49,320 bases of DNA, from IMG/VR virus record IMGVR_UViG_3300008050_000019. One strand, given 5' to 3'. Positions 4,437-26,526 of this stretch are shown piece after piece. Position 1 is the stretch's first letter; each line of letters starts with the position of its first letter. Source of the DNA: a virus. The notes below the pieces were generated by a model. That model did not search any database, was not told the DNA's origin, and worked only from the letters and a program-made list of their open reading frames with translations. Both the position numbers and the translations under genes were made by a program.

Positions 4437-4507
4437 AGGCCGCCAGGGACTCGAACCCTGATTAAAAGATTTGGAATCTTTTGTGTTACCAATTACACTA
4501 ACGTCCC
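4437..4507 (-). tRNA. tRNA-Trp (anticodon CCA)
   Basis: D arm GTGT/ACAC, anticodon arm AAAGA-TTCCAAA-TCTTT, T arm CAGGG-TTCGAGT-CCCTG; imperfect acceptor. Confidence 0.6.
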
Positions 4508-4661
4508 AGATGAATGCGGTATGATCTGACTTCGATACTCTTATGGGCATATGATCTCCATAAGGCTCTTTCTACGGTACTTTATAGGCTACCAGATTGC
4601 AGGCGTTGGAGTGAATCCTAGCATACAAAAATATAACCGCTAAGTTATACTACACATTCAA

Positions 4662-4735
4662 TGCTTTTGAGTGGACTCGAACCACCAAACACCAGACCCT
4701 CGACCTGGCCGCTTGACCGATTAGCGTACAAAAGC
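4662..4735 (-). tRNA. tRNA with Leu-type anticodon GAG, class I architecture, C33
   Basis: perfect acceptor GCTTTTG/CAAAAGC, anticodon arm CCAGG-TCGAGGG-TCTGG, T arm GGTGG-TTCGAGT-CCACT. Confidence 0.5.
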
Positions 4736-4748
4736 TCTATCATATTTA

Positions 4749-5174
4749 CTACAAGAAATCACAAGGTGGCGCAACATCTTCATGTCGGCAACCTAGCAAA
4801 TGCCCAAGTTCATGTCTTATGGTTTCTCGTTTTGCTTTATTCTGAATAAAAACTTGCCGAAAGATTATTTTTCTGTTGTGTCTTGTTATCATTATACAAC
4901 CATAATATCCACACCTTCGTGGGAGTGTGTTTACGAATGCTACCGGCACAAGATCATCACTGTCATTGCAAAAAGGAGAAATTTTAAAAACTTTTTCTTT
5001 CATCTTCCTATTCCAGAAAATAACTTCTTCTTCAAAAGGCTTAAGTTTCTTGCTTGGTATATCATCTATAAACAAGCATACTGGAAAAATTCCCCCTTCT
5101 CTTACTTTTAAGTCTATTACTGTTTTGCAACTTAATAATGAAATTATTACCAATGTTAACAATACTTTCTTCAT
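4749..5174 (-). CDS. metzincin-like zinc metallopeptidase, predicted lipoprotein
   Basis: HELGHLLGCRHE (HExxHxxGxxH); N-terminal signal MKKVLLTLVIISLLSC with lipobox-like LLSC. Confidence 0.6.
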   Translation of the reverse strand: MKKVLLTLVIISLLSCKTVIDLKVREGGIFPVCLFIDDIPSKKLKPFEEEVIFWNRKMKEKVFKISPFCNDSDDLVPVAFVNTLPRRCGYYGCIMITRHNRKIIFRQVFIQNKAKRETIRHELGHLLGCRHEDVAPPCDFL

Positions 5175-5202
5175 ACTACTAATTATAGTAGCTTAATCTA
5201 AA

Positions 5203-5275
5203 AGGGCAAAGCGAGACTTGAACTCGCGACCAATCGGTTAACAACCGACCGTTCTAACCACTGAACTATTCACCC
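5203..5275 (-). tRNA. tRNA-Asn (anticodon GTT)
   Basis: D arm GTTC/GAAC, anticodon arm GTCGG-TTGTTAA-CCGAT, T arm GCGAG-TTCAAGT-CTCGC. Confidence 0.8.
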
Positions 5276-5364
5276 GATCGAGGGGGAATTATTCCCCCTC
5301 TTTTGTTATCCTTGCTTAACCTTCATATTTCTTCCTCCGGAAAATAATATCTCTATTATTTAAG

Positions 5365-5439
5365 CCCCCCGTATGAGATTCGAACTCATGATCTCTGCGG
5401 TGACAACGCAACGTCCACTCCTGACTGGACCGACGGGGG
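5365..5439 (-). tRNA. tRNA-Asp (anticodon GTC)
   Basis: perfect acceptor CCCCCGT/ACGGGGG, anticodon arm TTGCG-TTGTCAC-CGCAG, T arm ATGAG-TTCGAAT-CTCAT. Confidence 0.8.
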
Positions 5440-5540
5440 AAATAAAATTTTATTTGGTCGATGGCCCGGCAATCGCGAGCTTGCCAGTTTGACCCCAAAG
5501 CAGAGTCCGGTAACAGCCTTATCTCTCTGGTGCACATCGA

Positions 5541-5615
5541 TCTAGACGGCAGGGCTTGAACCTGCAAAAAACCTGACACGGAATCAGGCGCCACACCAAA
5601 TTTGTGGTCGTCTAG
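5541..5615 (-). tRNA. tRNA-like, possibly Arg (anticodon CCG); atypical
   Basis: perfect acceptor CTAGACG/CGTCTAG, anticodon arm CCTGA-TTCCGTG-TCAGG (pyrimidine 37), T arm GCAGG-TTCAAGC-CCTGC, shifted D arm. Confidence 0.4.
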
Positions 5616-5626
5616 TTAAAATCAAC

Positions 5627-5700
5627 TCTGGGCAAAGGGATTCGAACCCCTGTTCTCACGGTCCCAAACCGCGTGTGATACCAAACTTCACCATACCCAG
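5627..5700 (-). tRNA. tRNA-Pro (anticodon TGG)
   Basis: acceptor CTGGGTA/TGCCCAG, anticodon arm CGCGG-TTTGGGA-CCGTG, T loop TTCGAAT. Confidence 0.8.
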
Positions 5701-5704
5701 TGAA

Positions 5705-5791
5705 TTTGAAGAGTGGGATTCGAACCGCACATTTCCGACCCTTCTCGGCCGTGAGACAGGATTGGCGTGTTACCGCTAACACTATCTTTAA
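5705..5791 (-). tRNA. degenerate tRNA-like element (class II length), anticodon not assignable
   Basis: TTCGAAT T-loop signature and D arm GTGT/ACAC present but T stem and anticodon stem do not pair cleanly. Confidence 0.3.
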
Positions 5792-5794
5792 TTA

Positions 5795-5873
5795 CCCGTA
5801 TAGCGGGATTTGAACCCACGTCTTCGCCACCCCTTAGAGGCCGAACGATGTTTTACCCTTAAACTACCAACGG
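5795..5873 (-). tRNA. degenerate tRNA-like element, anticodon not assignable
   Basis: T arm GTGGG-TTCAAAT-CCCGC and D arm GTTT/AAAC; acceptor with 2 mismatches, no clean anticodon stem. Confidence 0.3.
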
Positions 5874-5878
5874 ATAAA

Positions 5879-5961
5879 TGAATGAGGAGGGAGTTGAACC
5901 CCCAAAGACCGAAGCCGGGTCGTTTACAGCGACTTGATTTTACCAATAACCATACTCATCC
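5879..5961 (-). tRNA. tRNA-Tyr (anticodon GTA), class II
   Basis: acceptor GGATGAG/CTCATTC, anticodon loop CTGTAAA, variable-arm hairpin CCG-GCTT-CGG, T arm GGGGG-TTCAACT-CCCTC. Confidence 0.65.
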
Positions 5962-6079
5962 AAAAAAGTAAAGATAGGTCTTTCACCTATATCTTCCCCC
6001 TCATACGGGAGCTGTTCTATTTTAAACTACTTTACTACGCTTATAACATACATCATTACCACTATATGTTATAAACAAT

Positions 6080-6150
6080 TGCGGATCCCAGACTTGCACT
6101 GGGCCCTGTGGCTTATGAGGCCACCGAGGTACCTATATCCTCCAATCCGC
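6080..6150 (-). tRNA. tRNA-Met-like (anticodon CAT), non-canonical T loop TGCAAGT
   Basis: acceptor GCGGAT/ATCCGC, anticodon arm GTGGC-CTCATAA-GCCAC, T arm CCCAG-TGCAAGT-CTGGG. Confidence 0.5.
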
Positions 6151-6219
6151 GTCAATGGTTTTAATGAGATCCGAAAACTCCATATTGGTCCCGCCGATGA
6201 TTAAAAAAGCTAAACCCAC

Positions 6220-6591
6220 TCAGGAACTTGGAAAGATAACGCTTTCGACATATACCTTCAAAAAATCTGATTTATCATCGTTATCATAGCCCCCTCTCGG
6301 AAACCCAAAACTCCTTGATAAAAGATATTTCTTAGTAACTAGTCCTGGTTCAAACTGTCCCTCAAAACCATAACATGAACAGTGTCCACCCCGATTCAGG
6401 AACAATTTGTCTGTCTTTCTTTCTCTCAATACAAACCAAGATCCAGAATCACACCCCCAGGAACCTTCATGTTGGTATGCAATTAAAATTTTGAAGCGGT
6501 TAAGCTCTGCCAATGTAATATCATAATCTCCACAAATTTGTTCTTTTACTTCGTCTTTCGACATTCCTTCATAATCAGCTAACAATAACAT
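6220..6591 (-). CDS. hypothetical protein (123 aa) inside tRNA block
   Basis: six-frame ORF, protein-like composition. Confidence 0.5.
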   Translation of the reverse strand: MLLLADYEGMSKDEVKEQICGDYDITLAELNRFKILIAYQHEGSWGCDSGSWFVLRERKTDKLFLNRGGHCSCYGFEGQFEPGLVTKKYLLSRSFGFPRGGYDNDDKSDFLKVYVESVIFPSS

Positions 6592-6650
6592 AACAAACCC
6601 TCCGTATTATACAGAAATGCTTAGCGTTTGCTATATACTATTAACTAAAA

Positions 6651-6725
6651 TCCCCCCACCAGGACTCGAACCTGGAACCTCCGGCTTAAAAGGCCATTGC
6701 ACTAATCCAGTTGTGCTATGGAGGG
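6651..6725 (-). tRNA. tRNA-Lys (anticodon TTT)
   Basis: acceptor CCCTCCA/TGGGGGG, D arm GCAC/GTGC, anticodon loop CTTTTAA, T arm CCAGG-TTCGAGT-CCTGG. Confidence 0.7.
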
Positions 6726-6726
6726 T

Positions 6727-6799
6727 TTATAAGGGAAGAATTCGAATCTTCATTTCCCGCTTTAATCGTGCGGGTGTACTACCATTATACTACCTTATG
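6727..6799 (-). tRNA. tRNA-like with C1-A72 mismatch and 9-nt anticodon loop ACGATTAAA; identity ambiguous
   Basis: T arm GAAGA-TTCGAAT-TCTTC, D arm GTAT/GTAC, anticodon stem CCCGC/GCGGG around a 9-nt loop containing TTA. Confidence 0.4.
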
Positions 6800-6952
6800 G
6801 TTGTCATATGAAGAGTTTATACTTCAATTCCTCAATCCAAATGAGGCGCGATATTTTCACCAATATGACGATTTTAGATATTAACCTAGGCTATGAACCT
6901 ATATCCAATGCAACACTGCTATTGCAAAGGCCGGAATATATTTAATATCTAA

Positions 6953-7027
6953 TGGGATTACCGGGATTCGAACCCGGATCTGTCCGATTAAGAGTCGGCT
7001 ATATTAACACATTAATACTATAATCCC
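6953..7027 (-). tRNA. tRNA-Lys (anticodon CTT)
   Basis: perfect acceptor GGGATTA/TAATCCC, anticodon loop CTCTTAA, T arm CCGGG-TTCGAAT-CCCGG. Confidence 0.7.
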
Positions 7028-7078
7028 AATTTACATTTTATTCAATTTTCAAAGAAACAAATCACAAAATGATTTGAA

Positions 7079-7163
7079 TGAGGAACCTGAGGATCGAACT
7101 CAGTTGCACCCTAAGGCGACCAGGTTTACAGCCTGGGTTATCTCCATAATAATCTAGTTCCCC
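7079..7163 (-). tRNA. tRNA-Tyr (anticodon GTA), second diverged copy, class II
   Basis: acceptor GGGGAAC/GTTCCTC, anticodon arm CCAGG-CTGTAAA-CCTGG, long variable arm, T arm CTGAG-TTCGATC-CTCAG. Confidence 0.55.
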
Positions 7164-7252
7164 GTAATCATGAATGGCTTTAATCATCCAGTGTGTAGTT
7201 ATTATAACTCATTAGTTATCAAATTACAACATTTTTAAATTTTATTTTCATA

Positions 7253-7324
7253 AGATTGAGATGAGACTCGAACTCACAATCTTGGTTTTGCAGACCAAAG
7301 CCTTAACCATTTAGCTACTCAATC
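7253..7324 (-). tRNA. tRNA-Cys (anticodon GCA)
   Basis: perfect acceptor GATTGAG/CTCAATC, anticodon arm TTGGT-CTGCAAA-ACCAA, T arm GTGAG-TTCGAGT-CTCAT. Confidence 0.8.
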
Positions 7325-7326
7325 GA

Positions 7327-7398
7327 TGGTGCTACCTGGTAACGCTCCAGGATCTTCTGTTTATCAGACAGACGTTCATACTTCCCTACTATAGCACC
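7327..7398 (-). tRNA. tRNA-Ile-like (anticodon GAT), non-canonical T loop AGCGTTA
   Basis: same body as 1087..1158 (acceptor GGTGCTA/TAGCACC, T arm CCTGG-AGCGTTA-CCAGG) but anticodon arm TCTGT-CTGATAA-ACAGA. Confidence 0.5.
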
Positions 7399-7402
7399 AA
7401 AA

Positions 7403-7474
7403 CGCTTTTTAGTGGATTCGAACCACTACATCTGGTACTTCACACCAGCATGCTACCGTTAACATCAAAAAAGC
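7403..7474 (-). tRNA. tRNA-Phe (anticodon GAA)
   Basis: perfect acceptor GCTTTTT/AAAAAGC, D arm ATGT/GCAT, anticodon arm CTGGT-GTGAAGT-ACCAG, T arm AGTGG-TTCGAAT-CCACT. Confidence 0.8.
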
Positions 7475-7724
7475 ATAAATCCTATTACAACTAACTAGCC
7501 TTTTGGGCCTGTAATTGGCACCCGTTCTCTCAGCGGGTGTTATATTAACGAATGTTAATACATCCTCTAGCCAGCAGCTTAATTAAAAGCAGGATATTTC
7601 TCGCAATCAAGGTCTAGCGATGGTTTCGACCCATCTTCTGCACCCACTGCAGGTGTGCCGTAATACTTCTATACGAGCTAGACTTATTTCTTTTATATTT
7701 TCTTCCAATTTTTATGTAACATTA

Positions 7725-7793
7725 TGGAGAAGACGGGTAACGCTCCCGCTCATTCCGGTGTGCAAAACCAGATGCTATCCTTATAGCTTCCCC
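7725..7793 (-). tRNA. tRNA-Ala-like (anticodon TGC), short D arm, T loop AGCGTTA
   Basis: acceptor GGGGAAG/CTTCTCC, anticodon arm CTGGT-TTTGCAC-ACCGG, T arm GCGGG-AGCGTTA-CCCGT. Confidence 0.5.
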
Positions 7794-7797
7794 AATA

Positions 7798-7871
7798 AGC
7801 AAGTAAGGGGATTCGAACCCCTACATCAAGAGTGGAAATCTTGCATGCTATCCATTAAACATCATACTCGC
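7798..7871 (-). tRNA. tRNA-Gly (anticodon TCC)
   Basis: acceptor GCGAGTA/TACTTGC, D arm ATGT/GCAT, anticodon arm CAAGA-TTTCCAC-TCTTG, T arm AGGGG-TTCGAAT-CCCCT, U73. Confidence 0.8.
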
Positions 7872-7968
7872 ATACTCGATTTTGTTTTAACCTCATCATG
7901 TTAAATAATTATATAACATTTTTTTTCATTTAACACTTAATTTAAAACAAAATTGAAATTCTTATTCT

Positions 7969-8154
7969 TTAATCAGCAAACTTGTGAATGTTCCCACCCA
8001 CCTTCGTAACCATATTCTGAATGAACTCAGCACGCCCCAGAGCCCGCCAAGCAATTTTTAGTTCATCATCAATACGCTGGGTTGCATCCTTGATGGTTTC
8101 CTTTAACTTTCTAAAAGACTCTTCCATCTCTTGGTCAGTTTGATCATTACTCAT
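7969..8154 (-). CDS. hypothetical small protein (61 aa)
   Basis: six-frame ORF between tRNA genes. Confidence 0.35.
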   Translation of the reverse strand: MSNDQTDQEMEESFRKLKETIKDATQRIDDELKIAWRALGRAEFIQNMVTKVGGNIHKFAD

Positions 8155-8201
8155 AATTTATTTTATCACCTATAATATCCAATGACATATTTTATTTTTA
8201 A

Positions 8202-8288
8202 CGGAAGGCAGAAGGATTGAACTCCATCCACTTTTAAGAACCCACTGATTAGCAAACAGCGACCAGAACCAATCTGGTATTACCTTCC
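8202..8288 (-). tRNA. tRNA-Ser (anticodon GCT), class II
   Basis: acceptor GGAAGGT/GCCTTCC, D arm CCAG-ATTGGTT-CTGG, anticodon loop TTGCTAA, long variable arm. Confidence 0.65.
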
Positions 8289-8293
8289 AAAAG

Positions 8294-8407
8294 TTACGTT
8301 ACCAGGAGTCGAACCTGGCTTGTCAACCAGACACCAGATGAAAACATCTTGAATGGATTCGAACCACTATTACTCGCGCGCAGAGTATATACCGACTTAC
8401 TAACGTA
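8294..8407 (-). tRNA. irregular or nested tRNA-like locus (two T-arm signatures inside one perfect 7-bp acceptor pairing)
   Basis: TACGTTA (8401..8407) pairs perfectly with TAACGTA next to T arm CCAGG-TTCGACT-CCTGG (8302..8318); a second T arm AGTGG-TTCGAAT-CCATT lies between. Confidence 0.3.
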
Positions 8408-8413
8408 ACCAGA

Positions 8414-8486
8414 GGTACTCGAAGGGGATTGAACCCTCATCGTTCGGACCACAGCCGAAAGCTCTAACCATTGAGCTACGAGCACC
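8414..8486 (-). tRNA. tRNA-His (anticodon GTG) with genome-encoded G-1
   Basis: acceptor GTGCTCG/CGAGTAC preceded by G, D arm GCTC/GAGC, anticodon arm TTCGG-CTGTGGT-CCGAA, T arm GAGGG-TTCAATC-CCCTT. Confidence 0.8.
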
Positions 8487-8491
8487 ATAAA

Positions 8492-8563
8492 AGCCTGCGA
8501 GAGGAATTCAACCCCCATTTCTTGATTACAAAACAAGAGTAATAAGCATTATACTACACAGGC
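8492..8563 (-). tRNA. tRNA-Thr (anticodon TGT)
   Basis: acceptor GCCTGTG/CGCAGGC, anticodon loop TTTGTAA, T loop TTGAATT (G56). Confidence 0.6.
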
Positions 8564-8896: not shown

Positions 8897-9550
8897 TTAT
8901 TTTAAATAATAGCTTGCAGCCCTATCTGGAGCTGGAGTGTCTTTTAAATAAATTTCTTTCTCTTTTCTCCAAACTGAAGGGCTTGAAGAGACTTTCCTTA
9001 ACTTCGGGAGAAAAAACATACCATCTTTTTCTTCAAGGAGATGCTGAGGAAGTCGCATGTCTTTCTTGCTTGACCCTGGTAAATAGATTTGTGCATACAT
9101 GTTCGGTCCATATACTCTGTCTAAGGCGTGCTTGATGTCATTTTTCATTGTATTTCCAATGAACTCATACATGCCATAACATTCATTATTTCTTAGTGGC
9201 CTATTTGTTATAACATATAAATGAACTTTTCCCGTTGTCGATGGTATTGCTATATATGAATTTTCCTTAAATGGGAATTCGCTACTTCTCTCCCATTCAT
9301 AGAAATAACTCCAATTTCTTATGTCAATATCAACCCACATAAGGTGTTTATCTCCGCCTGCGGTTAAAACCTCACTTGCCTGAGTACCAACAATAATGCC
9401 CTTTCTGCATAAATCAGTAAGAAATCGAAATTTTTCATCTAGAGTCGTGAATTTCCCAAAGTGGCAAGATGAGGGCATCTTAAGAGATTTCGTTATTAGG
9501 TATGTAGTCCAGTATAGACTAATATCAGAAATCATACAAATGATTCCCAA
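8897..9550 (-). CDS. hypothetical protein (217 aa)
   Basis: six-frame ORF; 19-nt overlap with upstream gene. Confidence 0.55.
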   Translation of the reverse strand: MGIICMISDISLYWTTYLITKSLKMPSSCHFGKFTTLDEKFRFLTDLCRKGIIVGTQASEVLTAGGDKHLMWVDIDIRNWSYFYEWERSSEFPFKENSYIAIPSTTGKVHLYVITNRPLRNNECYGMYEFIGNTMKNDIKHALDRVYGPNMYAQIYLPGSSKKDMRLPQHLLEEKDGMFFLPKLRKVSSSPSVWRKEKEIYLKDTPAPDRAASYYLK

Positions 9551-11136
9551 ATTTTAATTTCTTCATCTACCCAATGGGCGAAATCTATGTAGTTTTTGAA
9601 ATCAATCGGTTGACCATCATGCGTTTCACCAGACGTCAAATGCCCATCATAAATTTTATTATATAGATTATTATAATACGCAATAGCCCCAGCTGCCTCT
9701 GCGATCATCTCTGATGTTGCGATCGCAGAGATATTACCATCCCAATCATCATCTTGCATGAACGCGGCGTCTTGTAACACACCTGCTGTACGTTTTACGA
9801 AGTCCTCATATGCATCAGGACTAAGCTGTTTTTGTAGCGCTTTAATATACTTGAATAAATTGTCTGTGTTGCCTTTGTATATCCATTTAAAATATGCTTC
9901 TGGAACGAGCTCTGGAGAAGACATGACACGTTTCAGTATTTTAATCGATAATACCGGGTTGTCATCCCAATTCCTGGCATACCCATCCAAAAATCCCTTC
10001 GCAATTGACTCATTCCCACTATCAAATATTTGATTTTGTTGTTGTTTTGTTACACCATTTTCTTCTGACGCATATCTTGCTATGAAATAGTTAACTCCTT
10101 CATCATTCGCTGCAAGCGCTGCCTCTATTAAATCATTAGTGTATTTAAATCCCTCTCCATATTCGAATACGCGTAGCGCGGTAGCCGCGGATCTTACTCT
10201 GCCTGAGTTTATTAGATCAGTGACGAGTGGCCCAGTGATACTCACGGGCTCGTCATACAGCATGTCACTGATATGAGCATGCAATGTTTCATCGCTTGTT
10301 TCATTAAAAAGCTTTTCTCTGATTTCTGATGGCGTATTCGGATTTTCGAGTAGCACCGTCTGACAAGTTTTATCATTCGCATACTTTTTAATGAGTTCCT
10401 GATCATCAGTTTTTGACAAAGTATATAACAACATTTCTCCCGAACTCATGCAGTCTTCGTGAATGACTTTTATAACATCATCACCCACCATATTCTCGAG
10501 TATATCGGCGCTAAATGTAGCATCCGTTGCATCAAAATTCTGTTGTGTGAAAGGTTTAACTTCCGTGCGCACCATTGCGACTGCTATCTTATGGTACTTA
10601 TCATCTTTATCTTTTGATTTATCGATAATAAAGTAAAACTTCACCCCTCTCTTAACATATGAAGCAAAATAATTATGAGACTGAGTAGCAGCGATACACC
10701 ACTTTGTCCCCCTACCATAATAACATGACGCTTCCTTTGTCGTAACTCTCAAGACGACTATGCTTCCCTGTGCATATATTACCTGAGCACCACTCTTGGC
10801 AAGTTTTTTGTCTTCGCCTTTTGAAGTTCCGAGAATTTCAAAAGCATTTCGCAAATCGGCCAGCGTAGCATATGAATTTATATCTTTAACTTGCAGTCTT
10901 TGCTTTTCTTTTTCAAATTTCTTTATTAAGTTGACAATTTCTGCAACAGGTTCATCATTAATTGCTTGTTTTAGCATCCAGTCAAGATACTTTTTTGTAG
11001 GTGACGGGTCTGCAATAGCTAATCTATCAATTATTTTAATATGGTCAGGATACTTAACTTTTAAGTCATCAATCCTACCTTCCGAAAGAAGTGTTTTTGC
11101 TAAAACTTCTTTAATAAGCCTTTTGATATTGTCCAT
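9532..11136 (-). CDS. hypothetical large protein (534 aa)
   Basis: long ORF with even composition; no recognised motif. Confidence 0.65.
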   Translation of the reverse strand: MDNIKRLIKEVLAKTLLSEGRIDDLKVKYPDHIKIIDRLAIADPSPTKKYLDWMLKQAINDEPVAEIVNLIKKFEKEKQRLQVKDINSYATLADLRNAFEILGTSKGEDKKLAKSGAQVIYAQGSIVVLRVTTKEASCYYGRGTKWCIAATQSHNYFASYVKRGVKFYFIIDKSKDKDDKYHKIAVAMVRTEVKPFTQQNFDATDATFSADILENMVGDDVIKVIHEDCMSSGEMLLYTLSKTDDQELIKKYANDKTCQTVLLENPNTPSEIREKLFNETSDETLHAHISDMLYDEPVSITGPLVTDLINSGRVRSAATALRVFEYGEGFKYTNDLIEAALAANDEGVNYFIARYASEENGVTKQQQNQIFDSGNESIAKGFLDGYARNWDDNPVLSIKILKRVMSSPELVPEAYFKWIYKGNTDNLFKYIKALQKQLSPDAYEDFVKRTAGVLQDAAFMQDDDWDGNISAIATSEMIAEAAGAIAYYNNLYNKIYDGHLTSGETHDGQPIDFKNYIDFAHWVDEEIKIWESFV

Positions 11137-13019: not shown

Positions 13020-13035
13020 CCACAAAATAAAATGA

Positions 13036-13353
13036 TTGACACATTATTTTATTTTGTGCATTATGCATAATTTACGTGGTATTTTTAATAAAATGAAAAT
13101 TCATGAAGGAGATCTTATATGGCATCATAACCGATGCGAAACGTTTATCGTCATTGAACTCGCTGCTTTTGATCTATGGAGATGGAATCCGAATTCTGAG
13201 ATAGTCTGCAGATGCTCAAACTTCGCCTGTGTAGATATTCGTGTACTAAATATAAAAACGGGTGAATTGCATAACTTCGAGACGTGCTCAGATAGCTACC
13301 ATGAACATACACAGGAGTCGACAATATTGCTTATCAGGAAGCTAACTCCATAA
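13036..13353 (+). CDS. cysteine-motif array paralog 1
   Basis: HEGDLIWHHN ... CRC ... ETCSDSYHEH; likely true start at internal M (13093). Confidence 0.55.
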   Translation: MTHYFILCIMHNLRGIFNKMKIHEGDLIWHHNRCETFIVIELAAFDLWRWNPNSEIVCRCSNFACVDIRVLNIKTGELHNFETCSDSYHEHTQESTILLIRKLTP

Positions 13354-13619
13354 TGAACATACATGAATTAAAAGATGGAGATCTTATTGCGGCTCGCCAT
13401 AATAGAAAACTATTGATAGTTGCTACTACATTTACCTATGGTAATGATATACCAGCACTTAAGAAGCCAATATGCCATTGTGGTATGCCCGCACACAGAA
13501 GTATAAAGTTATACGATTCAGCATCAAAAACCGACTTCGAAATTGTTTGTTGCAAGAATCCAGAATGCTTAGAAGATCCTTCATTAAACGGTGCTAAGTT
13601 GGTATGCTCACTTGAATGA
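13353..13619 (+). CDS. cysteine-motif array paralog 2
   Basis: KDGDLIAARHN ... CHC ... CCKNPEC; ATGA overlap. Confidence 0.6.
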   Translation: MNIHELKDGDLIAARHNRKLLIVATTFTYGNDIPALKKPICHCGMPAHRSIKLYDSASKTDFEIVCCKNPECLEDPSLNGAKLVCSLE

Positions 13620-13839
13620 AGGGAAAACGGCGAAATTTAAACCAGGAGATATGCTTTGCTCAGAAACTTTCTGCCAAAAGTTCATCATATTAAATGAAGT
13701 TATCGGTAGTGCCTGGGCATACGAGAGATTTACTTTAAACCAATGTGGTGAACTTCCTCCCTGCGGAGTGTGCCACGCTTGCCTTGTGTTGAATACAGGT
13801 TCAATGTTTTGGACACTGATACGAATGAAGTCTACGTAA
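13591..13839 (+). CDS. cysteine-motif array paralog 3 (divergent)
   Basis: KPGDMLC ... CGELPPCGVCHAC. Confidence 0.5.
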   Translation: MLSWYAHLNEGKTAKFKPGDMLCSETFCQKFIILNEVIGSAWAYERFTLNQCGELPPCGVCHACLVLNTGSMFWTLIRMKST

Positions 13840-13915
13840 GGCGCTTATGTTCATCACCAAGGTGCATTAGCAGCTTTATGAAAAACTGGATTTTGGTTAA
13901 GATAGAGGTTTCATT

Positions 13916-14158
13916 ATGAGTGAGATACTTAAGGCGGGTGATTTATTACGTTACTGGCTGCCAAGCTTTGACGGACGATACTATATTGTGCTAGAGAAAC
14001 CAGCATGCGAGACTGGTGTCTGTCATACGTGCCTTACAAAATACTATTATATAACTTTTTTTGACCTTCAATGTAGCGACTTACTACAAATAGTGTTCTG
14101 TGATGATTTTAAATGCGAGACTCAGCGAAATTGGAGTCTTGTATCTGATGGAGTGTAG
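13916..14158 (+). CDS. cysteine-motif array paralog 4
   Basis: KAGDLLRYW ... CHTC ... FCDDFKCE. Confidence 0.55.
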   Translation: MSEILKAGDLLRYWLPSFDGRYYIVLEKPACETGVCHTCLTKYYYITFFDLQCSDLLQIVFCDDFKCETQRNWSLVSDGV

Positions 14159-14381
14159 GCTCAAGCTCGGCGAAATGTGGAAAACTGGCCATAATAGTAA
14201 GTGCTTCATAGTCATTGCTCATCCAAAAGCTTTATCACATCAGTGCCCACAGTGTGGGGGCGTGTGGTACAGAGTACAAATATATTATACGTCAAATCCT
14301 CTCCTGCGAGTAGGGTTGCTTGTCTGTGAAGCTGATGAATGCTTCAAGAGCACAGCATTAAATTTTGTGTCCTCAATCTAG
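14100..14381 (+). CDS. cysteine-motif array paralog 5
   Basis: LGEMWKTGHN ... CPQC ... VCEADEC; true start probably internal. Confidence 0.5.
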   Translation: MMILNARLSEIGVLYLMECRLKLGEMWKTGHNSKCFIVIAHPKALSHQCPQCGGVWYRVQIYYTSNPLLRVGLLVCEADECFKSTALNFVSSI

Positions 14382-14430
14382 TAATATATCGTGTATTTCG
14401 TATACTACAAGTAATAAAATTATTTAGGAA

Positions 14431-14676
14431 ATGAATAACCCATTTGAAATAGGCAAGTTATACCATGATACATCCGATACTGAGAAAGCCATTGTTATAT
14501 CTGAACCTTGGATTTTTTGTCGTTGGGATTGCACCACATGTGGACAGGATATCTATGCAGTAACTACTGTAGCATTTCCCCCTATATATTCCGAAGAAGT
14601 CAGGCGTGATAGAATAATATACTGTAAATCGCCAAAATGCAAAGATTACGAGACGACATGGGTGGTTTGTGCTTAA
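14431..14676 (+). CDS. cysteine-motif array paralog 6
   Basis: EIGKLYHD ... CTTC ... YCKSPKC. Confidence 0.6.
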   Translation: MNNPFEIGKLYHDTSDTEKAIVISEPWIFCRWDCTTCGQDIYAVTTVAFPPIYSEEVRRDRIIYCKSPKCKDYETTWVVCA

Positions 14677-14911
14677 CAAGCATGATCTGAAGGTTGGTGC
14701 ATTATGCTATATGAACAACAAAATCATAGCAGACTATGATTTTTTTGTTGTTGTAGATGTCAACTTACCATGTGATGCAATATGTGCACCCTGTAATCAC
14801 CCTTCCCTATTAATAGACGCTTTGTTTCTTCGTGACTACATCCTCATGCGTTATACGATTTGTGCTGCAGGATGTTCCACAACATTATATGAGATTGAGG
14901 TGGTAGTTTGA
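14669..14911 (+). CDS. cysteine-motif array paralog 7
   Basis: KVGALCYMNN ... CAPC ... ICAAGC. Confidence 0.55.
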   Translation: MLNKHDLKVGALCYMNNKIIADYDFFVVVDVNLPCDAICAPCNHPSLLIDALFLRDYILMRYTICAAGCSTTLYEIEVVV

Positions 14912-15210
14912 AATATGACCCGGCGTTCCATCAAGAGTCATTTATGTCGGCAAGCGTTGTCGGGGTTGGTGATATTTGCATCTTTTATGGCTACAAAAAC
15001 TCGGCGGCGCTGGTGGCTGAGATTCGTGATTTATCTGAGGGCAGCCGGAAATGTTATTGTACACAAGACACGAACAAAGAGCAAACAATGAAGATGATAA
15101 AATTATATTATGTGCAGCATAACATTATCGCCACAGAGGTGTGTTGTACATCTCCATTATGTCATAGGTTTCGATACAGAACAGCTGTCGTTCACGCAGG
15201 CATCGAGTGA
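14908..15210 (+). CDS. cysteine-motif array paralog 8
   Basis: GVGDICIFYG ... CYC ... CCTSPLC; ATGA overlap. Confidence 0.6.
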   Translation: MKYDPAFHQESFMSASVVGVGDICIFYGYKNSAALVAEIRDLSEGSRKCYCTQDTNKEQTMKMIKLYYVQHNIIATEVCCTSPLCHRFRYRTAVVHAGIE

Positions 15211-15554
15211 TGGAGATTTTGCCAGTGGTGATGCCGTCCTTTACACCCGCTTTTTTTAGTAGCCGCACAAAAGTGGCTGAGGTTCATGATTTATTACATT
15301 TTACGTGTGATGGTCGAAGATCATCAGCGATCGTCCTCCGCGTCGCACCTATATGTACAATACGCAGATGCAGATGTATTTTAGGTAGTACAGGTCCCTG
15401 GAATGGGCCAGAAACGTTTACATTGGCCCAAGTGTATGTATTTTTTTGTTCAACAGGATGTCTAATTAATTTAGATTATTGTAATAGTCCGACGTGTAAC
15501 ACCGCACATTTTATTGTTCAAAACACCACCACACTCGAAAGGCTGTCAGAATGA
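15207..15554 (+). CDS. cysteine-motif array paralog 9
   Basis: EVHDLLHF ... CRC ... YCNSPTC. Confidence 0.6.
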   Translation: MMEILPVVMPSFTPAFFSSRTKVAEVHDLLHFTCDGRRSSAIVLRVAPICTIRRCRCILGSTGPWNGPETFTLAQVYVFFCSTGCLINLDYCNSPTCNTAHFIVQNTTTLERLSE

Positions 15555-15874
15555 CAATGACAGAAGCAACGGCATGTGATTTATTTATTAGACCACATAT
15601 GAGTACCGTCGGTGCTGCGTTCGCACCCAGCGATTTGTTATATTTTCCGCCCCGATCTTATGAAGCACGGTATGGTGTTGTTCTTAAAGTAGAACAAGAG
15701 ACCAGCAAAAGCCAATGTAGATGTACCATCGCCGCAGACCCTAAAGATCGCGCGTTTTTAAGCTATGTCTACGTATATCTTTTTGATACTCATGACATCA
15801 GTAAATTAACATATTGTATTAATACTAAATGTGGCAATGGCTGGTTCTACCCTAAAGTAATAGGTAACCTATAG
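15551..15874 (+). CDS. cysteine-motif array paralog 10
   Basis: CRC ... YCINTKC. Confidence 0.6.
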   Translation: MTMTEATACDLFIRPHMSTVGAAFAPSDLLYFPPRSYEARYGVVLKVEQETSKSQCRCTIAADPKDRAFLSYVYVYLFDTHDISKLTYCINTKCGNGWFYPKVIGNL

Positions 15875-15875
15875 T

Positions 15876-16220
15876 ATGGATCTTTTGTCCCATATATACA
15901 TAGTGCCATTTATGAAAATAGGCGGCTCATACCCACAGGTACATGATTTAGCCTTTATTCCGTGGTATAGTCATCTTGCGAGAAACAAACATATATGTAT
16001 TATTGTAGAGATAATATCAGCTAAAACCGTAATTTGTAAGTGTTCGAAAAGTGATGTCCACAAAGGCGCAACGCCAATTCTGTACGTTCAAGTATACATT
16101 TTAAGTCTTAAAATTACTAAAAATTTAACTTGTTGTATTAATCCGGAATGCACGCAGCCTAGCAATAGCATGGAAACAGTTAGCATACTTCCACAGAAAG
16201 GTTCAAATGGACGATTATAG
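15876..16220 (+). CDS. cysteine-motif array paralog 11
   Basis: QVHDLAFIPW ... CKC ... CCINPEC. Confidence 0.6.
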   Translation: MDLLSHIYIVPFMKIGGSYPQVHDLAFIPWYSHLARNKHICIIVEIISAKTVICKCSKSDVHKGATPILYVQVYILSLKITKNLTCCINPECTQPSNSMETVSILPQKGSNGRL

Positions 16221-16497
16221 ACTTTCATTTATACATACTGACGTTCTTCCGGAAGCAGGTGATTTAATTATCGTACCTCATGTAGATTTATACGCAATCG
16301 TTATTGGCACGCCAGAGTCTCACTCATATTTTTGCCGGTGCATGAGTTCAAGAAAAGAAAAATATAGGTCAGTCAGTTCTGTTAACCTATATTTCATTAA
16401 CATGAATAAGTATCGGACACTGACATGGTGCACTGCACCTTCTTGTGATGAATCTGGGATTTATCCAGTTTTCATTACAATACGAACAGAAATATGA
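16207..16497 (+). CDS. cysteine-motif array paralog 12
   Basis: EAGDLIIVPH ... CRC ... WCTAPSC. Confidence 0.6.
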   Translation: MDDYRLSFIHTDVLPEAGDLIIVPHVDLYAIVIGTPESHSYFCRCMSSRKEKYRSVSSVNLYFINMNKYRTLTWCTAPSCDESGIYPVFITIRTEI

Positions 16498-16524
16498 CGT
16501 GCTATATACAATCAAGGTATCCAA

Positions 16525-16869
16525 ATGACTGAGAAAATCAAAAAACCAATTGCATATATCACACCTAGCCTTTCAATTCGTGATCAATATGACGCAGTTA
16601 TACAACGACCAGAGATCGGTGATATGTTGGCGTTGTTGACATATGCTCAAACAATGTCCTATGACAAAGCAATTATCATTGAAACTGAAGCTTTGGTCGA
16701 CAAGTGTGCTTGCTGGTGCAGCAGGCATGGGGAGCCAATGTGGCTTACTGAGTTGACATGTTTCGATGTAACAACGAGGGTGCTGTACACACCAACGTAT
16801 TGCAAATCTCCCAATTGTGATGAACACAGAAATTTGTCACGAATTATACGATATAGGAGCAAGAAATAA
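16525..16869 (+). CDS. cysteine-motif array paralog 13
   Basis: EIGDMLALL ... CACWC ... YCKSPNC. Confidence 0.6.
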   Translation: MTEKIKKPIAYITPSLSIRDQYDAVIQRPEIGDMLALLTYAQTMSYDKAIIIETEALVDKCACWCSRHGEPMWLTELTCFDVTTRVLYTPTYCKSPNCDEHRNLSRIIRYRSKK

Positions 16870-17220
16870 GTGTCTATTAAAGACATTGCATACTTAATAC
16901 CCAGCATAAAAGTGGGAATGAGCGATGGCAAGCCTCCTGGTCCTGGTGACGTCTTATTAGCGCTACCAGCGGCTGGGACCTCCTCCACGGAGGAGACTGG
17001 AGTCATCACCGGCTCTGCGCCCATCGAGTGTTATTACCTTTGTGCATGTCAAAAGTACGCTATAACGAAGATATCCACACTTGTCGCAGTTTATTTTTTC
17101 TCGCTTTTATATAAAGATGTTGGGCGAGCAATATATTGCAGTGAACCTAACTGTAATAAACATAATGTAACTGTAACTGGAATCCGATACGAAACGCGAG
17201 AGACAAAATGCTATTTATAG
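16870..17220 (+). CDS. cysteine-motif array paralog 14 (GTG start)
   Basis: GPGDVLLAL ... CAC ... YCSEPNC. Confidence 0.55.
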   Translation: MSIKDIAYLIPSIKVGMSDGKPPGPGDVLLALPAAGTSSTEETGVITGSAPIECYYLCACQKYAITKISTLVAVYFFSLLYKDVGRAIYCSEPNCNKHNVTVTGIRYETRETKCYL

Positions 17221-17531
17221 AACCACATGCAAAAGAGCTAACCGCACTTAATCCAGGTGACATAATATTTAAAGCTCCTGGAACTACCGATGTCGTTGGT
17301 GATATCGGGTTTGCAGTTATTGATAACATTAGGCCCGCGGTCAATGTTGGTTGCTTGTGCAATAGAGCTTGTAGAGGTATCATTAAGTTGGAAAAGGCAC
17401 TCACGGTAGTAACGTTTTTCTCTTTAAGCAATAATTGCTTAGACTGGTTCACGTATTGTACCAACCCTAACTGTAGTGAAGGTAGGGTCACTTACTGCGT
17501 GATAAAATACAAAAAGGGCGGGATAGAATGA
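17208..17531 (+). CDS. cysteine-motif array paralog 15
   Basis: NPGDIIFKAP ... CLC ... YCTNPNC. Confidence 0.6.
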   Translation: MLFIEPHAKELTALNPGDIIFKAPGTTDVVGDIGFAVIDNIRPAVNVGCLCNRACRGIIKLEKALTVVTFFSLSNNCLDWFTYCTNPNCSEGRVTYCVIKYKKGGIE

Positions 17532-17836
17532 GTCATACTGAATTAGATAGTGATATAGTGCCAACTATAGCCACACTCCTTCCTCATGTCGGCGACTTAC
17601 TCATTATTAACACACGGACTTACGTTGTTACCAATGACAAGTTTACCCTTGAAGATTACTACTTCTGCGAAGAACACTATAAAGAGCGCAAAAAGAGCAT
17701 TGTTATACTTGACACATTTTGCCTAGAAGAGAATTATTGCGCATACCTCATTTGCTGCATTGAACCTGGATGTAATTCTGCAGACAATGACGTGGCAATT
17801 GTAAAATATGAAAGGAGAAAGCAGGATGAGCTATAA
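17528..17836 (+). CDS. cysteine-motif array paralog 16
   Basis: HVGDLLIIN ... FCEEH ... CCIEPGC; ATGA overlap. Confidence 0.6.
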   Translation: MSHTELDSDIVPTIATLLPHVGDLLIINTRTYVVTNDKFTLEDYYFCEEHYKERKKSIVILDTFCLEENYCAYLICCIEPGCNSADNDVAIVKYERRKQDEL

Positions 17837-18149
17837 TATATACAAAGGAAAGCTCGTACGCGTGCATAAAGGTGTACAGCTAGGTGATCTTCTTATAGAG
17901 CGTGGTAACTATGAAGACAGTTCTATGCTGATGACGAATGTCATCGTCGGCCAGGAGACTGAGAGTCAACGCCTTTATTGCTCGTGTCTCTTACCACCCG
18001 AGCCCCATAAATCGACCATTCGCTGGATTCGTGCGTATAATGTCGAGGATGACTATAGCTTATATCATACTTTTTGCGCGAACCCAGAGTGCGTTGAAGC
18101 CGTCAGGTGTGATATCGACATAATCTATATGAGTAAAGACCATGAATAA
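17808..18149 (+). CDS. cysteine-motif array paralog 17
   Basis: QLGDLLIERG ... CSC ... FCANPEC. Confidence 0.6.
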   Translation: MKGESRMSYNIYKGKLVRVHKGVQLGDLLIERGNYEDSSMLMTNVIVGQETESQRLYCSCLLPPEPHKSTIRWIRAYNVEDDYSLYHTFCANPECVEAVRCDIDIIYMSKDHE

Positions 18150-18489
18150 AAGTAAGTGGAGGAAACAAATGACTGAAGCCTTATATTGGCCCGCTTTCGT
18201 GTCAAGTCAACCAGGAGGTCCGATGACCCCAGAACCTGGCGATTATTTTTATACAAAAGAACAAATTGGGCAGAACGAAACGTCAGGAATTGTCATTCAT
18301 GCTGAACTTAATTCTGAGAGATATTGTTCTTGCCAGCGTTGTTTACCGAAAAGGGTGTTCACTGTCTTCGACGTTGAACTTGCCTTCTTCCCTCCCGACT
18401 TTGCACGTCATCTGACATGGTGCACAAACACGCGATGCAACGTGTCATCTTATTGCCCCAACCTTGTCAAACTTGAACCTACAGAGTAA
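18142..18489 (+). CDS. cysteine-motif array paralog 18
   Basis: EPGDYFY ... CSCQRC ... WCTNTRC. Confidence 0.6.
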   Translation: MNKSKWRKQMTEALYWPAFVSSQPGGPMTPEPGDYFYTKEQIGQNETSGIVIHAELNSERYCSCQRCLPKRVFTVFDVELAFFPPDFARHLTWCTNTRCNVSSYCPNLVKLEPTE

Positions 18490-18919
18490 TCCTGCCTAGC
18501 TATCCACTTGTCACGCGCAACAGGGGCACCACCCTACGACGCCCAAAAAAACACTCGAGAAAAATTTGAGAAGTGCGACAAAATGGTCTTGTATGGGTGT
18601 GGTGGGCAATGGTTGGGAAAGTTTTGGGCAGCGGGGGACAAAATTTCTCTCGAAAATCTGGAAAAATCTCCCAGCAGAGAAGGGCGCTTAGGCCGCCCTA
18701 GGCAGCCCCACAGGCCGCCCACACACCTTGCTACGGGCCGGGGGGCCCCAGGCCCCCGTTATATAGGCCCCAAGGGGCCCCCAAGAGGGGCCAGGCCCCT
18801 ACGTGCAGAATGATGAGGGGTACTATGGGGCTCTCCAGAATGCCGACACGAGTGCTCCTGTGCACGCAGAATACAGGGAAGTCCCGGGCTCTGTACAGGT
18901 CTAAATAAAATAAAAAAAG

Positions 18920-19090
18920 CCTGTACAGTCTCTGATTTTCCACTGTCGAAAATAAGTGAATTTAGCTGTATCTATTTCCTCGAGCCTGTGTTACTATATT
19001 CTTACCAGGTCAGGAATGGCACTGGGAAAACGGAGTTTAAATAATTATAAAATAATCCTGTTCTTTGAACCGAGATTGTGTTATAATATT
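18920..19090 (+). repeat. ~170-bp direct repeat, copy 1 (promoter-bearing leader of GC-rich paralog 1)
   Basis: cctgtaca..ccactgtcgaaaa.aagtgaa...ctgtatctattt...taccaggtcaggaatggcactg..gagtttaaataattataaaataatcctgttcttt..gagatt.tgttataat recurs at 21470..21640. Confidence 0.7.
19077..19087 (+). promoter_or_regulatory. extended -10 promoter TGTGTTATAAT
   Basis: matches the window-wide consensus TGTGTTATAATATTCTTA; 56 nt upstream of ATG 19144. Confidence 0.55.
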
Positions 19091-19143
19091 CTTACCAACT
19101 GGGGAGCTTAAAACCTTCCCCCCAAACAGAAAGCAGAGTCACT

Positions 19144-19671
19144 ATGACCTTCAAATTTACCGTCGGACAAACCTACAACGTCATCGACGAGAAGGGAGCC
19201 CGCGTCAACAAGGCCGGTGTGGTCGCCATCTCCGAACGGGAGAACAAGGGTGTCCTTACTCCTGACATGGACCTTGAGTACATCGGGAAGGCCGCCAAGG
19301 ACACGCCCCAGGCCGGACACCACATGTTCAAATTGCCCGAGGGTGTTGAAATCCTGGGTGAGACCACGATCGCCGGAGTCCGAAACCACTTCGACTTCAA
19401 TGCGGCTTACGTTCAAGCCAAGAAAAATATCCCGACCAAGGGGACGCTGCAGGAGCGTGCCGACGAGGCCACTCGCCAAGCGGAAGCAGCCAGCGACCAT
19501 GCCGAGAAGCTGCAAAGGATTGCTGCAGACCTGAGGGTCGAAATCCTCTGCCTCCAAGCGGATGAGCAGAAGGCTGCGGAGGCTGCGGCTAAGACACAGG
19601 CCGAAATCGACGCCTCCTGGGATGAGGCTGAGGCACAAGCCTCAGGGTACACCACCAACGCCCCAGAGTAA
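19144..19671 (+). CDS. GC3-rich paralog family member 1 (175 aa, N-terminal conserved domain and Ala/Glu-rich C-terminus)
   Basis: GxTYNVI..KGA...PDMDL.Y.GK...HH.F.LPEGV..LG..TI.G..NHFD shared with 21873..22409 and 40570..41214; GC-rich codons in an AT-rich genome. Confidence 0.7.
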   Translation: MTFKFTVGQTYNVIDEKGARVNKAGVVAISERENKGVLTPDMDLEYIGKAAKDTPQAGHHMFKLPEGVEILGETTIAGVRNHFDFNAAYVQAKKNIPTKGTLQERADEATRQAEAASDHAEKLQRIAADLRVEILCLQADEQKAAEAAAKTQAEIDASWDEAEAQASGYTTNAPE

Positions 19672-21391: not shown

Positions 21392-21469
21392 AAGAATATT
21401 ATATCACAAGTGATTGAGGAAAGATACCATTAAGTTCATTATGATTTATTTTCAATTAGCAGAGAAAAA

Positions 21470-21640
21470 CCTGTACAAGGCACGAAATTCCACTGTCGAA
21501 AAAGAGTGAAAATAACTGTATCTATTTTTCTGAGCCTATGATACCATATTCATACCAGGTCAGGAATGGCACTGAGTAAATACTGAGTTTAAATAATTAT
21601 AAAATAATCCTGTTCTTTTGAATGAGATTATGTTATAATT
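21470..21640 (+). repeat. ~170-bp direct repeat, copy 2 (leader of GC-rich paralog 2)
   Basis: see 18920..19090. Confidence 0.7.
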
Positions 21641-23942: not shown

Positions 23943-24284
23943 ATGGAAACCGAATTTGAATACCCTGACTGGGAAAAAATTAGGGCTAAACACCCAAACA
24001 TGATCATCGGATCAACTTTTTATCATGGCTGTGGTGAATTTATCGCTTCCATCAACGGTCAGCGCTTTTGGAAGGGAGGGGTAGAAGAGGGCGACGGCAA
24101 CACATTGGTTGAAAAAGCGATATCAACGTACGATATGGTTCAGCGGAGAATGGAAGCTGCTGGAGTCACACATTGCCTCGTTGATGAAGAAGATCCCAGC
24201 ATGGAACTTCGCCCCATCCAAAAATTCTTCGATGAAGATCGAGAGCGCGCCGCAGATGTCTATTACGACATCTGCGACTACTGA
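23943..24284 (+). CDS. hypothetical protein (113 aa)
   Basis: module promoter then ATG. Confidence 0.55.
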   Translation: METEFEYPDWEKIRAKHPNMIIGSTFYHGCGEFIASINGQRFWKGGVEEGDGNTLVEKAISTYDMVQRRMEAAGVTHCLVDEEDPSMELRPIQKFFDEDRERAADVYYDICDY

Positions 24285-24356
24285 TTTCTCTTTCTAATAA
24301 TGTTGTAATACTCTTGTGTCCTCAGGGATATGATTGTATTACAATATTTTTAGGAA

Positions 24357-24371
24357 TTGGGAATTTCCCAA
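24357..24371 (+). promoter_or_regulatory. operator-like palindrome TTGGGAATTTCCCAA at or just after predicted transcription start
   Basis: perfect 7-bp arms; related palindromes in the same module position at 26491, 27895, 28255, 40510. Confidence 0.5.
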
Positions 24372-25122: not shown

Positions 25123-25195
25123 CCTGCCATTCTCTTTCTAATAATGTTGTAATATTCTTGTATCTTCCGAGAATATTCGTGATATAATATTATTA

Positions 25196-25618: not shown

Positions 25619-25712
25619 ACTCCTCGTTAAATTCTCTTTCTAATAATGTTGTAATATTCTTGTATCTTCCGAGAATATTCGTGATATAATATTATTAGGA
25701 GTTAAACACTAC

Positions 25713-26172: not shown

Positions 26173-26418
26173 ATGACACAAACTCATATAATTTTATCTT
26201 ATGAAGATCTGAGTCTTCGTTTATGTGATCAGGGCACCCGTGATGACCTGATCAAGCTTTTGAATGAAGGGTGGAAACCTGAGCCTGGGCCGTTCTCCCT
26301 TTGGGACATCACCGATGACGGCCACATCTATAAGGTAAATACGTACCTAGGCAAAATCGTGATTGCCCCATTACCTAAAGGTGGTAACTCCCTTGATGTC
26401 ACGTCGTTAATTGACTAA
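26173..26418 (+). CDS. hypothetical protein (81 aa)
   Basis: six-frame ORF. Confidence 0.5.
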   Translation: MTQTHIILSYEDLSLRLCDQGTRDDLIKLLNEGWKPEPGPFSLWDITDDGHIYKVNTYLGKIVIAPLPKGGNSLDVTSLID

Positions 26419-26526
26419 ATTCTCTTTCTAATAATGTTGTAATACTTTTGTATCTTTCGGGACATGATCGTATTATAATATTTTTAGGAATTGGGAATTT
26501 CCCAACATCCCTTTACAGGAGTTAAT

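Follow-up and report, generated by a model that had tools for sequence, protein, structure and literature searches.

What is encoded between positions 13036 and 18489 of the viral DNA in IMG/VR record IMGVR_UViG_3300008050_000019, and what might it do for the phage? In this 49,320-nucleotide (nt) stretch, referred to below as the window, an earlier note made from the sequence alone had described a head-to-tail array of 18 plus-strand genes, the products of which share an N-proximal GD motif, a central CxC pair and a C-terminal cysteine motif. Large, lineage-specific paralog expansions are recognised in giant phages and are still unexplained.

We found that the array is a true family of diverged tandem paralogs, which was anciently duplicated. 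All 18 open reading frames (ORFs) were recovered where they had been described, i.e. consecutively and on the same strand, 17 of them intact and one (copy 3) frameshifted. Counting frames that are stop-free for 75 codons or more, 18 ORFs cover 97.8% of the array's plus strand; the corresponding values for 300 shuffled controls are a mean of 10.7% and a maximum of 33%, with six ORFs at most. The stop-free cover of the minus strand is 23%. When the whole window was scanned in six frames with a family hidden Markov model (HMM), all 18 copies were matched at 27–85 bits. The next-best ORF, with 8.8 bits, corresponds to the C-terminal half of copy 3, which lies out of frame. With leave-one-out HMMs, 14 members scored 17–48 bits versus no more than 11 bits for their shuffled versions, and m1, m3, m5 and m7 were weak. 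Once the starts had been refined and the frame of m3 had been corrected, m1, m3 and m5 outscored 500 of 500 shuffles, whereas the score of m7, the weakest and a marginal member, was reached by two of 500.

The proteins have 75–116 amino acids (aa) and masses of 9–13 kDa, and their mean pairwise identity is only about 19%. Cysteine makes up 6.0% of the residues, compared to 1.1–1.2% in genes nearby, and each protein has 4–8 cysteines. The grand average of hydropathy (GRAVY) is around 0, and the isoelectric points (pI) range from 4.6 to 9.0, most members being acidic or neutral. Inspection by eye, without a predictor of signal peptides or transmembrane segments, revealed no obvious hydrophobic N-terminal leader in any member. 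The copies form three contiguous blocks, i.e. m1 and m2 (short, CxC), m3–m7 (short, CxxC), and m8–m18 (long, CxC), the long members having an N-terminal extension of 15–30 residues. The individual copies are:

13093–13353, plus strand: m1, 86 aa, short type with CxC; longest ORF from TTG 13036; the fourth ligand is His (CSDSYH)
13353–13619, plus strand: m2, 88 aa, short type; CxC and CKNPEC
13612–13919, plus strand: m3, frameshifted; frame A (13612 or 13591 to 13839) with GDM and CGVC, frame B (13782–13919) with LCSSPRC
13916–14158, plus strand: m4, 80 aa, short type; CxxC (CHTC) and CDDFKC; AlphaFold model with a predicted local distance difference test (pLDDT) value of 78
14148–14381, plus strand: m5, 77 aa; longest ORF from GTG 14100; CxxC (CPQC) and CEADEC
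14431–14676, plus strand: m6, 81 aa; CxxC (CTTC) and CKSPKC
14669–14911, plus strand: m7, 80 aa; CxxC (CAPC) and CAAGC, which is one residue shorter; weakest member
14908–15210, plus strand: m8, 100 aa from TTG 14908; TTGA overlap with m7; N-terminal YDPAF kept
15210–15554, plus strand: m9, 114 aa, long type
15551–15874, plus strand: m10, 107 aa, long type; ATGA overlap with m9
15876–16220, plus strand: m11, 114 aa, long type
16207–16497, plus strand: m12, 96 aa, long type
16525–16869, plus strand: m13, 114 aa, long type
16870–17220, plus strand: m14, 116 aa, long type; GTG start with AGGAG 10 nt upstream
17208–17531, plus strand: m15, 107 aa, long type; AlphaFold pLDDT 75
17528–17836, plus strand: m16, 102 aa, long type; first ligand Cys lost, CEEH present
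17826–18149, plus strand: m17, 107 aa, long type; longest ORF from 17808
18169–18489, plus strand: m18, 106 aa, long type; longest ORF from 18142

Two copies required special attention. For m8, gene callers chose ATG 14944; we favour the upstream TTG 14908, because it retains the N-terminal motif of the long members (see below), and the junction between m7 and m8 then becomes a TTGA overlap. Frame A of m3 stops at 13839 after ...PPCGVCHAC..., while frame B (13782–13919) reads ...VEYRFNVLDTDTNEVYVRRLCSSPRCISS..., includes YVRRLCSSPRC, and overlaps at its end with the m4 start (ATGA). Correction of this one-base frameshift restores the otherwise absent C-terminal cysteine motif. Because m3 is frameshifted, the 76-nt gap that had been assigned to the junction of copies 3 and 4 is in fact out-of-frame coding sequence, i.e. 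the C-terminal half of m3. The m3 sequence is identical in two other assemblies (L001 and L002). Programmed frameshifting was ruled out, since a slippery heptamer is absent before the obligatory start of frame B. The frameshift is thus most likely a genuine indel, and m3 is likely to be a pseudogene or to yield a truncated product.

Ligand positions, predicted fold and relatives

A proper alignment, with m3 corrected, confirmed that the cysteines of all members align. The four ligand columns contain 17 Cys and one gap, 18 Cys, 18 Cys, and 17 Cys and one His, respectively; four aligned Cys/His ligands throughout the family are the pattern of a generic Cys4 or Cys3His structural site. The single His, in m1, is located exactly at the position of the fourth Cys, and m16, which lacks the first Cys, has C-E-E-H, so that four potential ligands are kept in every copy. 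Two of the motifs described earlier hold for most, but not for all members. The central CxC is present in m1, m2 and m8–m18, with only its second Cys in m16, while the five adjacent copies m3–m7 have CxxC instead. GD(L/M/I/V) is found in 13 of the 18 copies and the remaining five deviate; taken singly, the G and the D are present in 15 copies each and the hydrophobic residue in all 18.

Nine of the 11 long members share a (Y/F/I/L)-x-P-(S/H/A/T/F)-hydrophobic motif in their N-terminal extension, which is absent from the earlier note, versus 1.4 on average and six at most in shuffles, a statistic that is generous because the motif was defined post hoc, after the data had been seen. The motif falls into a segment of the m15 model with pLDDT values below 50, and the peptide is absent from all seven short members.

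AlphaFold2 was run with the array paralogs (17–18 sequences) as the sole alignment. The resulting models of m15 (pLDDT 74.9, predicted template modelling score (pTM) 0.66) and m4 (pLDDT 78.0, pTM 0.62) have an identical strand order. The GD-hydrophobic motif opens beta1, an I/V-rich stretch forms beta2, and the first Cys pair is located in the beta2–beta3 loop. Aromatic-rich stretches form beta3 and beta4, and C-x2-P-x-C follows directly after beta4, before a short beta5. The models have the strand order of SH3-like barrels, beta1-RT-beta2-nSrc-beta3-distal-beta4-(3-10)-beta5, and superpose on known members of this class. The family is thus predicted, with some confidence, to be an SH3/Tudor-like five-stranded small beta-barrel. 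Structure-match scores favour no single SH3-like superfamily, and a Foldseek search against BFVD gave no match below E=0.02.

The Cys pairs lie at the n-Src loop and at the usual position of the 3-10 turn, and judged from the models it is reasonable to regard a single zinc ion that bridges both pairs as geometrically plausible. The “zinc-ribbon-like” site proposed in the earlier note was partly right: a four-ligand site is present in the alignment, but the predicted fold is an SH3-like barrel and not a zinc ribbon, i.e. not a compact three-stranded mini-domain with Cys knuckles at beta-hairpin turns. Two pairs of Cys ligands, one of them spaced like CxxC, are common to zinc ribbons and the array proteins. 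However, in the latter the pairs are two full barrel strands apart, and the predicted fold lacks the two beta-hairpin knuckles.

The strands, the ligands and the hydrophobic core are conserved. Variation in length and sequence is concentrated in the RT loop (7–18 residues) and the stretch that follows the first Cys pair (4–16 residues), and also in the distal loop and the tails. In classical SH3 domains, ligands are bound by the RT and n-Src loops together with the 3-10 helix, and the distal loop of small beta-barrels is a known site of functional elaboration (bioRxiv 10.1101/140376).

To the extent that public databases were covered, the family appears to be an undescribed orphan, with no relative outside this phage among about 15 billion public proteins. 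The earlier note had not recognised the cysteine signature as that of a described family, and searches of Pfam (10 members), PHROGs (18), NCBIfam (17) and PADLOC (17) indeed gave isolated chance matches only, while PDB sequences gave no match. None of the 17 members matched a PADLOC defence-protein model at a meaningful E-value, the one chance match having a value of 0.022. The array family has no match at the sequence level to the established SH3-like families (Tudor, KOW/EF-P domain I, the RNA-polymerase-interacting domain of CarD/TRCF, and the C-terminal domain of UvrD/PcrA), and no matched family was found by sequence to have its four-ligand Cys site, which bridges the beta2–beta3 loop and the turn after beta4. 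Specifically, Pfam gave no significant match to the CarD_CdnL_TRCF or Tudor-like RNA-polymerase-interacting domain, and neither EFP_N nor KOW was matched as expected for an EF-P/eIF5A N-terminal KOW-like domain; the beta3–beta4 loop, which in that domain has a conserved modifiable Lys/Arg at its tip, is unconserved in the alignment.

The larger searches led to the same result. A word-indexed search of 5.8 billion clusters yielded no proteins other than four array members. The family-HMM search that had been suggested earlier, performed as an exhaustive scan of 1.84 billion representative proteins, returned 16 array members and no homologue outside the phage. Two further hits, P0017 and P0018, were rejected as homologues, since the match is a local motif limited to a 23–25-residue strand and a C-x-(N/D)-P-x-C turn; both are long bacterial repeat proteins in which this turn is repeated 6–8 times. 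A three-member profile found no relatives in IMG/VR, where it also missed the array itself, and the one match in JGI metagenomes was a 1.5-kb copy of this phage. Nothing outside the array was found in a tblastn search with m13 against 50,697 phage records. In addition, no family member is located within 10 kb on either side of the sole distant relative of the 534-aa ORF near the array, which is carried by a 214-kb IMG/VR contig (L004).

Array architecture and candidate transcription signals

It had been reported that nearly all of the ORFs abut or overlap by ATGA. About five junctions are literal four-nucleotide (A/T/G)TGA overlaps, but with the preferred starts the remaining junctions vary between an overlap of 14 nt and a gap of 49 nt. 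By a combinatorial estimate, contiguity would arise by chance with a probability of about 0.002 for the five CxxC copies and of about 0.0003 for the 11 long copies. Pairwise identity drops weakly with distance in the array (Spearman −0.19, Mantel p of about 0.01), and the best-matching pairs are neighbours or near-neighbours, e.g. m13/m14/m15 and m10/m11. The contiguity of derived characters and the decrease of identity with distance suggest that the array grew by old, local tandem duplication.

Two candidate control elements are located at the upstream end of the array:

13038–13066, plus strand: TTGACA-17 nt-CATTAT, a candidate sigma-70-like promoter identified by its match to the consensus alone (10 of 12 positions), 27 nt ahead of the m1 ATG 13093
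13021–13058, no strand assigned: inverted repeat with 16-nt arms (94% complementary) and a 6-nt spacer, which brackets the −35 hexamer

The inverted repeat may be an operator. The GC content at third codon positions is 0.37 in the array and 0.33–0.37 in the genes on the tRNA side, and it shifts sharply at about 18500, the value for the downstream genes being 0.57. The array is followed by a non-coding spacer of 650 nt (18490–19143) with very GC-rich stretches of GGCC and CCCC. No significant structured RNA was predicted in the GC-rich part at 18660–18920 (fold z −1.15).

The 20-nt motif TGTGTTATAATATTCTTACC occurs at ten sites between 18987 and 39537, versus 0.02 expected, e.g. at 18987–19006, 19077–19096 and 39518–39537. 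It precedes small genes on both strands and looks like an extended −10 element that is followed downstream by a fixed box, and likely represents a phage-specific promoter class. It was not found upstream of the array. Several intergenic repeats downstream of the array are 85–100% identical, i.e. 18914–19087 and 21465–21639; 24281–24364, 27059–27142 and 26414–26510; and 25129–25195 and 25631–25697. They probably contain the promoter motif.

Possible functions of the array

The reading that we tentatively favour, although at somewhat less than an even chance, is that the array is an operon of zinc-clipped beta-barrel binding modules, which have been diversified and act inside the host cell in takeover or counter-defence. 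The CxC or CxxC pair in the beta2–beta3 (n-Src) loop and the post-beta4 C-x2-P-x-C pair would together bind one structural Zn2+, which would clip the two Cys-bearing loops to each other. The genes would be co-transcribed from the sigma-70-like promoter at 13038–13066 as one operon and would be largely translationally coupled. The barrel would serve as a constant scaffold, while the loops and other segments named above vary, so that the array would supply a repertoire of small binding modules of differing specificity, able to sequester or redirect host proteins. The N-terminal extension of the long members, with its conserved peptide in nine of 11, may dock them to one common partner.

Several results favour this binder reading. 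A conserved scaffold with variable ligand-binding loops is what it predicts, the array looks transcriptionally separate from the blocks with the TGTGTTATAATATTCTTACC motif, and the mostly acidic or neutral pI values argue against general nucleic acid binding. The lack of an obvious export signal on inspection by eye also favours it and, together with a GRAVY of around 0, points to a cytoplasmic character. Other observations weigh against it. The proposals of the earlier note that the phage is virulent and that the array is a host-interaction or anti-defence arsenal are plausible guesses, the anti-defence role by analogy only, and the models of m15 and m4 are not fully independent, as they share one shallow alignment of 17–18 sequences. 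The independent assemblies all agree in the array; the window and two others are 100% identical there and differ at eight positions elsewhere in the shared 20 kb. Thus, ongoing arms-race turnover or short-term hypervariability is not visible, and rapid evolution is deduced from the divergence of the paralogs alone. Furthermore, the adjacent 534-aa ORF resembles a virion protein of phage PA5oct, which would equally fit a function of the array in the virion.

That function is the main rival, which is equally well precedented and which we consider unlikely but by no means negligible: the array could encode internal head or ejection proteins that are packaged into the virion and injected with the DNA, with the N-terminal peptide serving as a capsid-targeting sequence that is possibly cut by the prohead protease. 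A precedent of the same shape exists in the giant Salmonella phage SPN3US, the paralog family B of which has 20 members, 17 of them encoded by consecutive genes (gp138–154), and all were detected in the head (PMC5694885). Like the array, family B and related head paralog families of phiKZ-like phages are very large, lineage-specific, mostly tandem and highly diverged, and belong to giant phages. The biochemical function of the members is unassigned in both cases, and the number of members differs widely from phage to phage (PMC5694885). However, no sequence similarity between the array and family B was detected (HMM scan of 1.84 billion proteins; tblastn with m13 against the 50,697 phage records), and gp160 and gp141 of SPN3US are proteins of 18.5 and 32.6 kDa that were found in the head by mass spectrometry (PMC5694885), whereas the array proteins have 9–13 kDa and are Cys-rich. 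The internal proteins of T4 (IPI–III, Alt) have little in common beyond an N-terminal capsid-targeting sequence (PMC5694885), and a short common N-terminal peptide on otherwise dissimilar small proteins, placed in a low-confidence region of the model, is also seen in nine of the 11 long members. However, the array peptide is unlike the T4 targeting sequence, has no identifiable cleavage site, so that a protease-site pattern could not be defined, and is missing from the seven short members. The weak similarity of the adjacent 534-aa ORF to a structural protein of PA5oct that was verified by mass spectrometry supports a virion function. In contrast, the array is separate and divergently oriented and has a host-type −35/−10 promoter instead of the phage motif that occurs ten times downstream, and neither PHROGs nor the scan of 1.84 billion proteins revealed similarity to known virion protein families.

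The other alternatives are less probable. KOW, EF-P domain I, ribosomal L19 and the Tudor domains of CarD and UvrD dock on ribosomes or on RNA polymerase beta, and the array proteins could mimic or compete with them as binders of nucleic acids or of the translation or transcription machinery. The location of the array in a translation-related island with at least 26 tRNA genes and a peptide deformylase is in line with this idea, but the mostly acidic or neutral character of the members (pI 4.6–9.0) argues against general binding of nucleic acids, and we regard the idea as improbable. It is very improbable that the array is a decaying relic of an old amplification, with little or no present function and drifting towards pseudogenes. 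The frameshift of m3, the degenerate state of m1, m5 and m7, and the absence of the family near the distant relative of the 534-aa ORF on L004 are compatible with decay. However, 17 of the 18 frames are open, and the four ligand columns and the core hydrophobic residues have been kept at about 19% identity, which requires long-term purifying selection on each copy. Least credible of all is that the array encodes exported proteins in which the four cysteines form two disulfides and no metal site. The high Cys content of 4–8 per protein and the presence of the C-x-(N/D)-P-x-C turn in the repeats of P0017 and P0018, the latter with a hydrophobic N-terminus suggestive of export, would fit, but these matches span just 23–25 residues and no signal peptide or hydrophobic leader was obvious by eye. 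Cys-to-His swaps at ligand positions are typical of metal sites and not of disulfides, and the combination of CxC/CxxC and Cx4C spacing is typical of Zn knuckles. Hence, the His at a ligand position of m1, with a further His nearby in m16, favours a metal site over disulfides.

The binder reading has a more far-reaching version, which is distinctly unlikely: the array would be a hard-wired “binder library” of 18 zinc-clipped SH3-like mini-domains, 11 of them with an N-terminal extension and nine of these with a common docking peptide, and each domain would neutralise a different host defence or hub protein. If true, counter-defence would here use a previously undescribed protein scaffold, nature's counterpart to engineered affinity reagents built on small barrels. 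An array whose members bind different host targets would expose many host vulnerabilities or components of defence at once, and it would add a new small zinc-stabilised scaffold to the phage effectors. If, in contrast, the proteins are packaged into the virion, the head-paralog phenomenon of the SPN3US type would be extended to an unrelated protein family. From the models, the array can be described as the known paralog expansion of giant phages acting on a previously undescribed, predicted family of zinc-clipped small beta-barrels. As an example it is unusually clean: the 18 copies are uninterrupted, the predicted fold is simple, the putative metal site is obvious, the core is constant and the loops vary.

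The phage and its other genes

The window is part of a metagenomic contig of 308,593 bp (ENA ERZ27249009 k141_306648), in which the array is located at about 183.4–188.9 kb. The same DNA was assembled independently from SRR5467136, ERZ27249139 and a JGI sample. The source is an uncultivated jumbo phage of about 309 kb that has no close sequenced relative; a megablast search with the window against the 50,697 phage records gave no match. The following features precede the array:

400–8563, minus strand: tRNA cluster with 26 (ARAGORN) to 29 (Rfam) genes that cover most amino acids
2168–3043: phosphoribosyltransferase, within the tRNA cluster
3012–3575: SLT transglycosylase, within the tRNA cluster
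9532–11136, minus strand: 534-aa ORF, distantly and weakly similar to a virion structural protein of the Pseudomonas jumbo phage PA5oct
11197–12078, plus strand: trypsin-like serine protease with a lipoprotein-type N-terminus (...LFTFSIAC...), adjoining the phage peptide deformylase

Small ORFs are interspersed in the tRNA cluster. The 534-aa ORF, the protease and the peptide deformylase are the three genes just upstream of the array. A lipoprotein-type N-terminus is unusual for a phage-encoded protease. The peptide deformylase is 43% identical to a Clostridium gene and 33% identical to a gene of an Eubacteriales metagenome-assembled genome, which is uninformative about the host. All eight differences between the assemblies fall into 463 bp (9578–10040) of the 534-aa ORF, five of them into 9925–9939, and this region thus represents a local hypervariable patch in the gene related to the PA5oct virion protein.

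Downstream, four matches to the type II hammerhead ribozyme (Rfam RF02276) have 37.7–40.8 bits, the gathering score being 37:

40403–40464, plus strand: hammerhead match, upstream of ORF 40570–41214
41228–41290, plus strand: hammerhead match
41750–41814, plus strand: hammerhead match
42240–42303, plus strand: hammerhead match

Each of the latter three lies in a short intergenic spacer, immediately behind a stop codon and shortly ahead of the next small gene, an arrangement that suggests ribozyme processing of a polycistronic phage transcript. Lastly, the plus-strand ORFs 19144–19671 and 40570–41214 have, as judged by eye, similar N-terminal halves (M.F.F..GQ.YNV.DEKG... and MPKAINFVSGQSYNVFEDKG..., respectively), which are followed by Ala/Glu-rich tails, and they form a second, dispersed pair of paralogs in the window.

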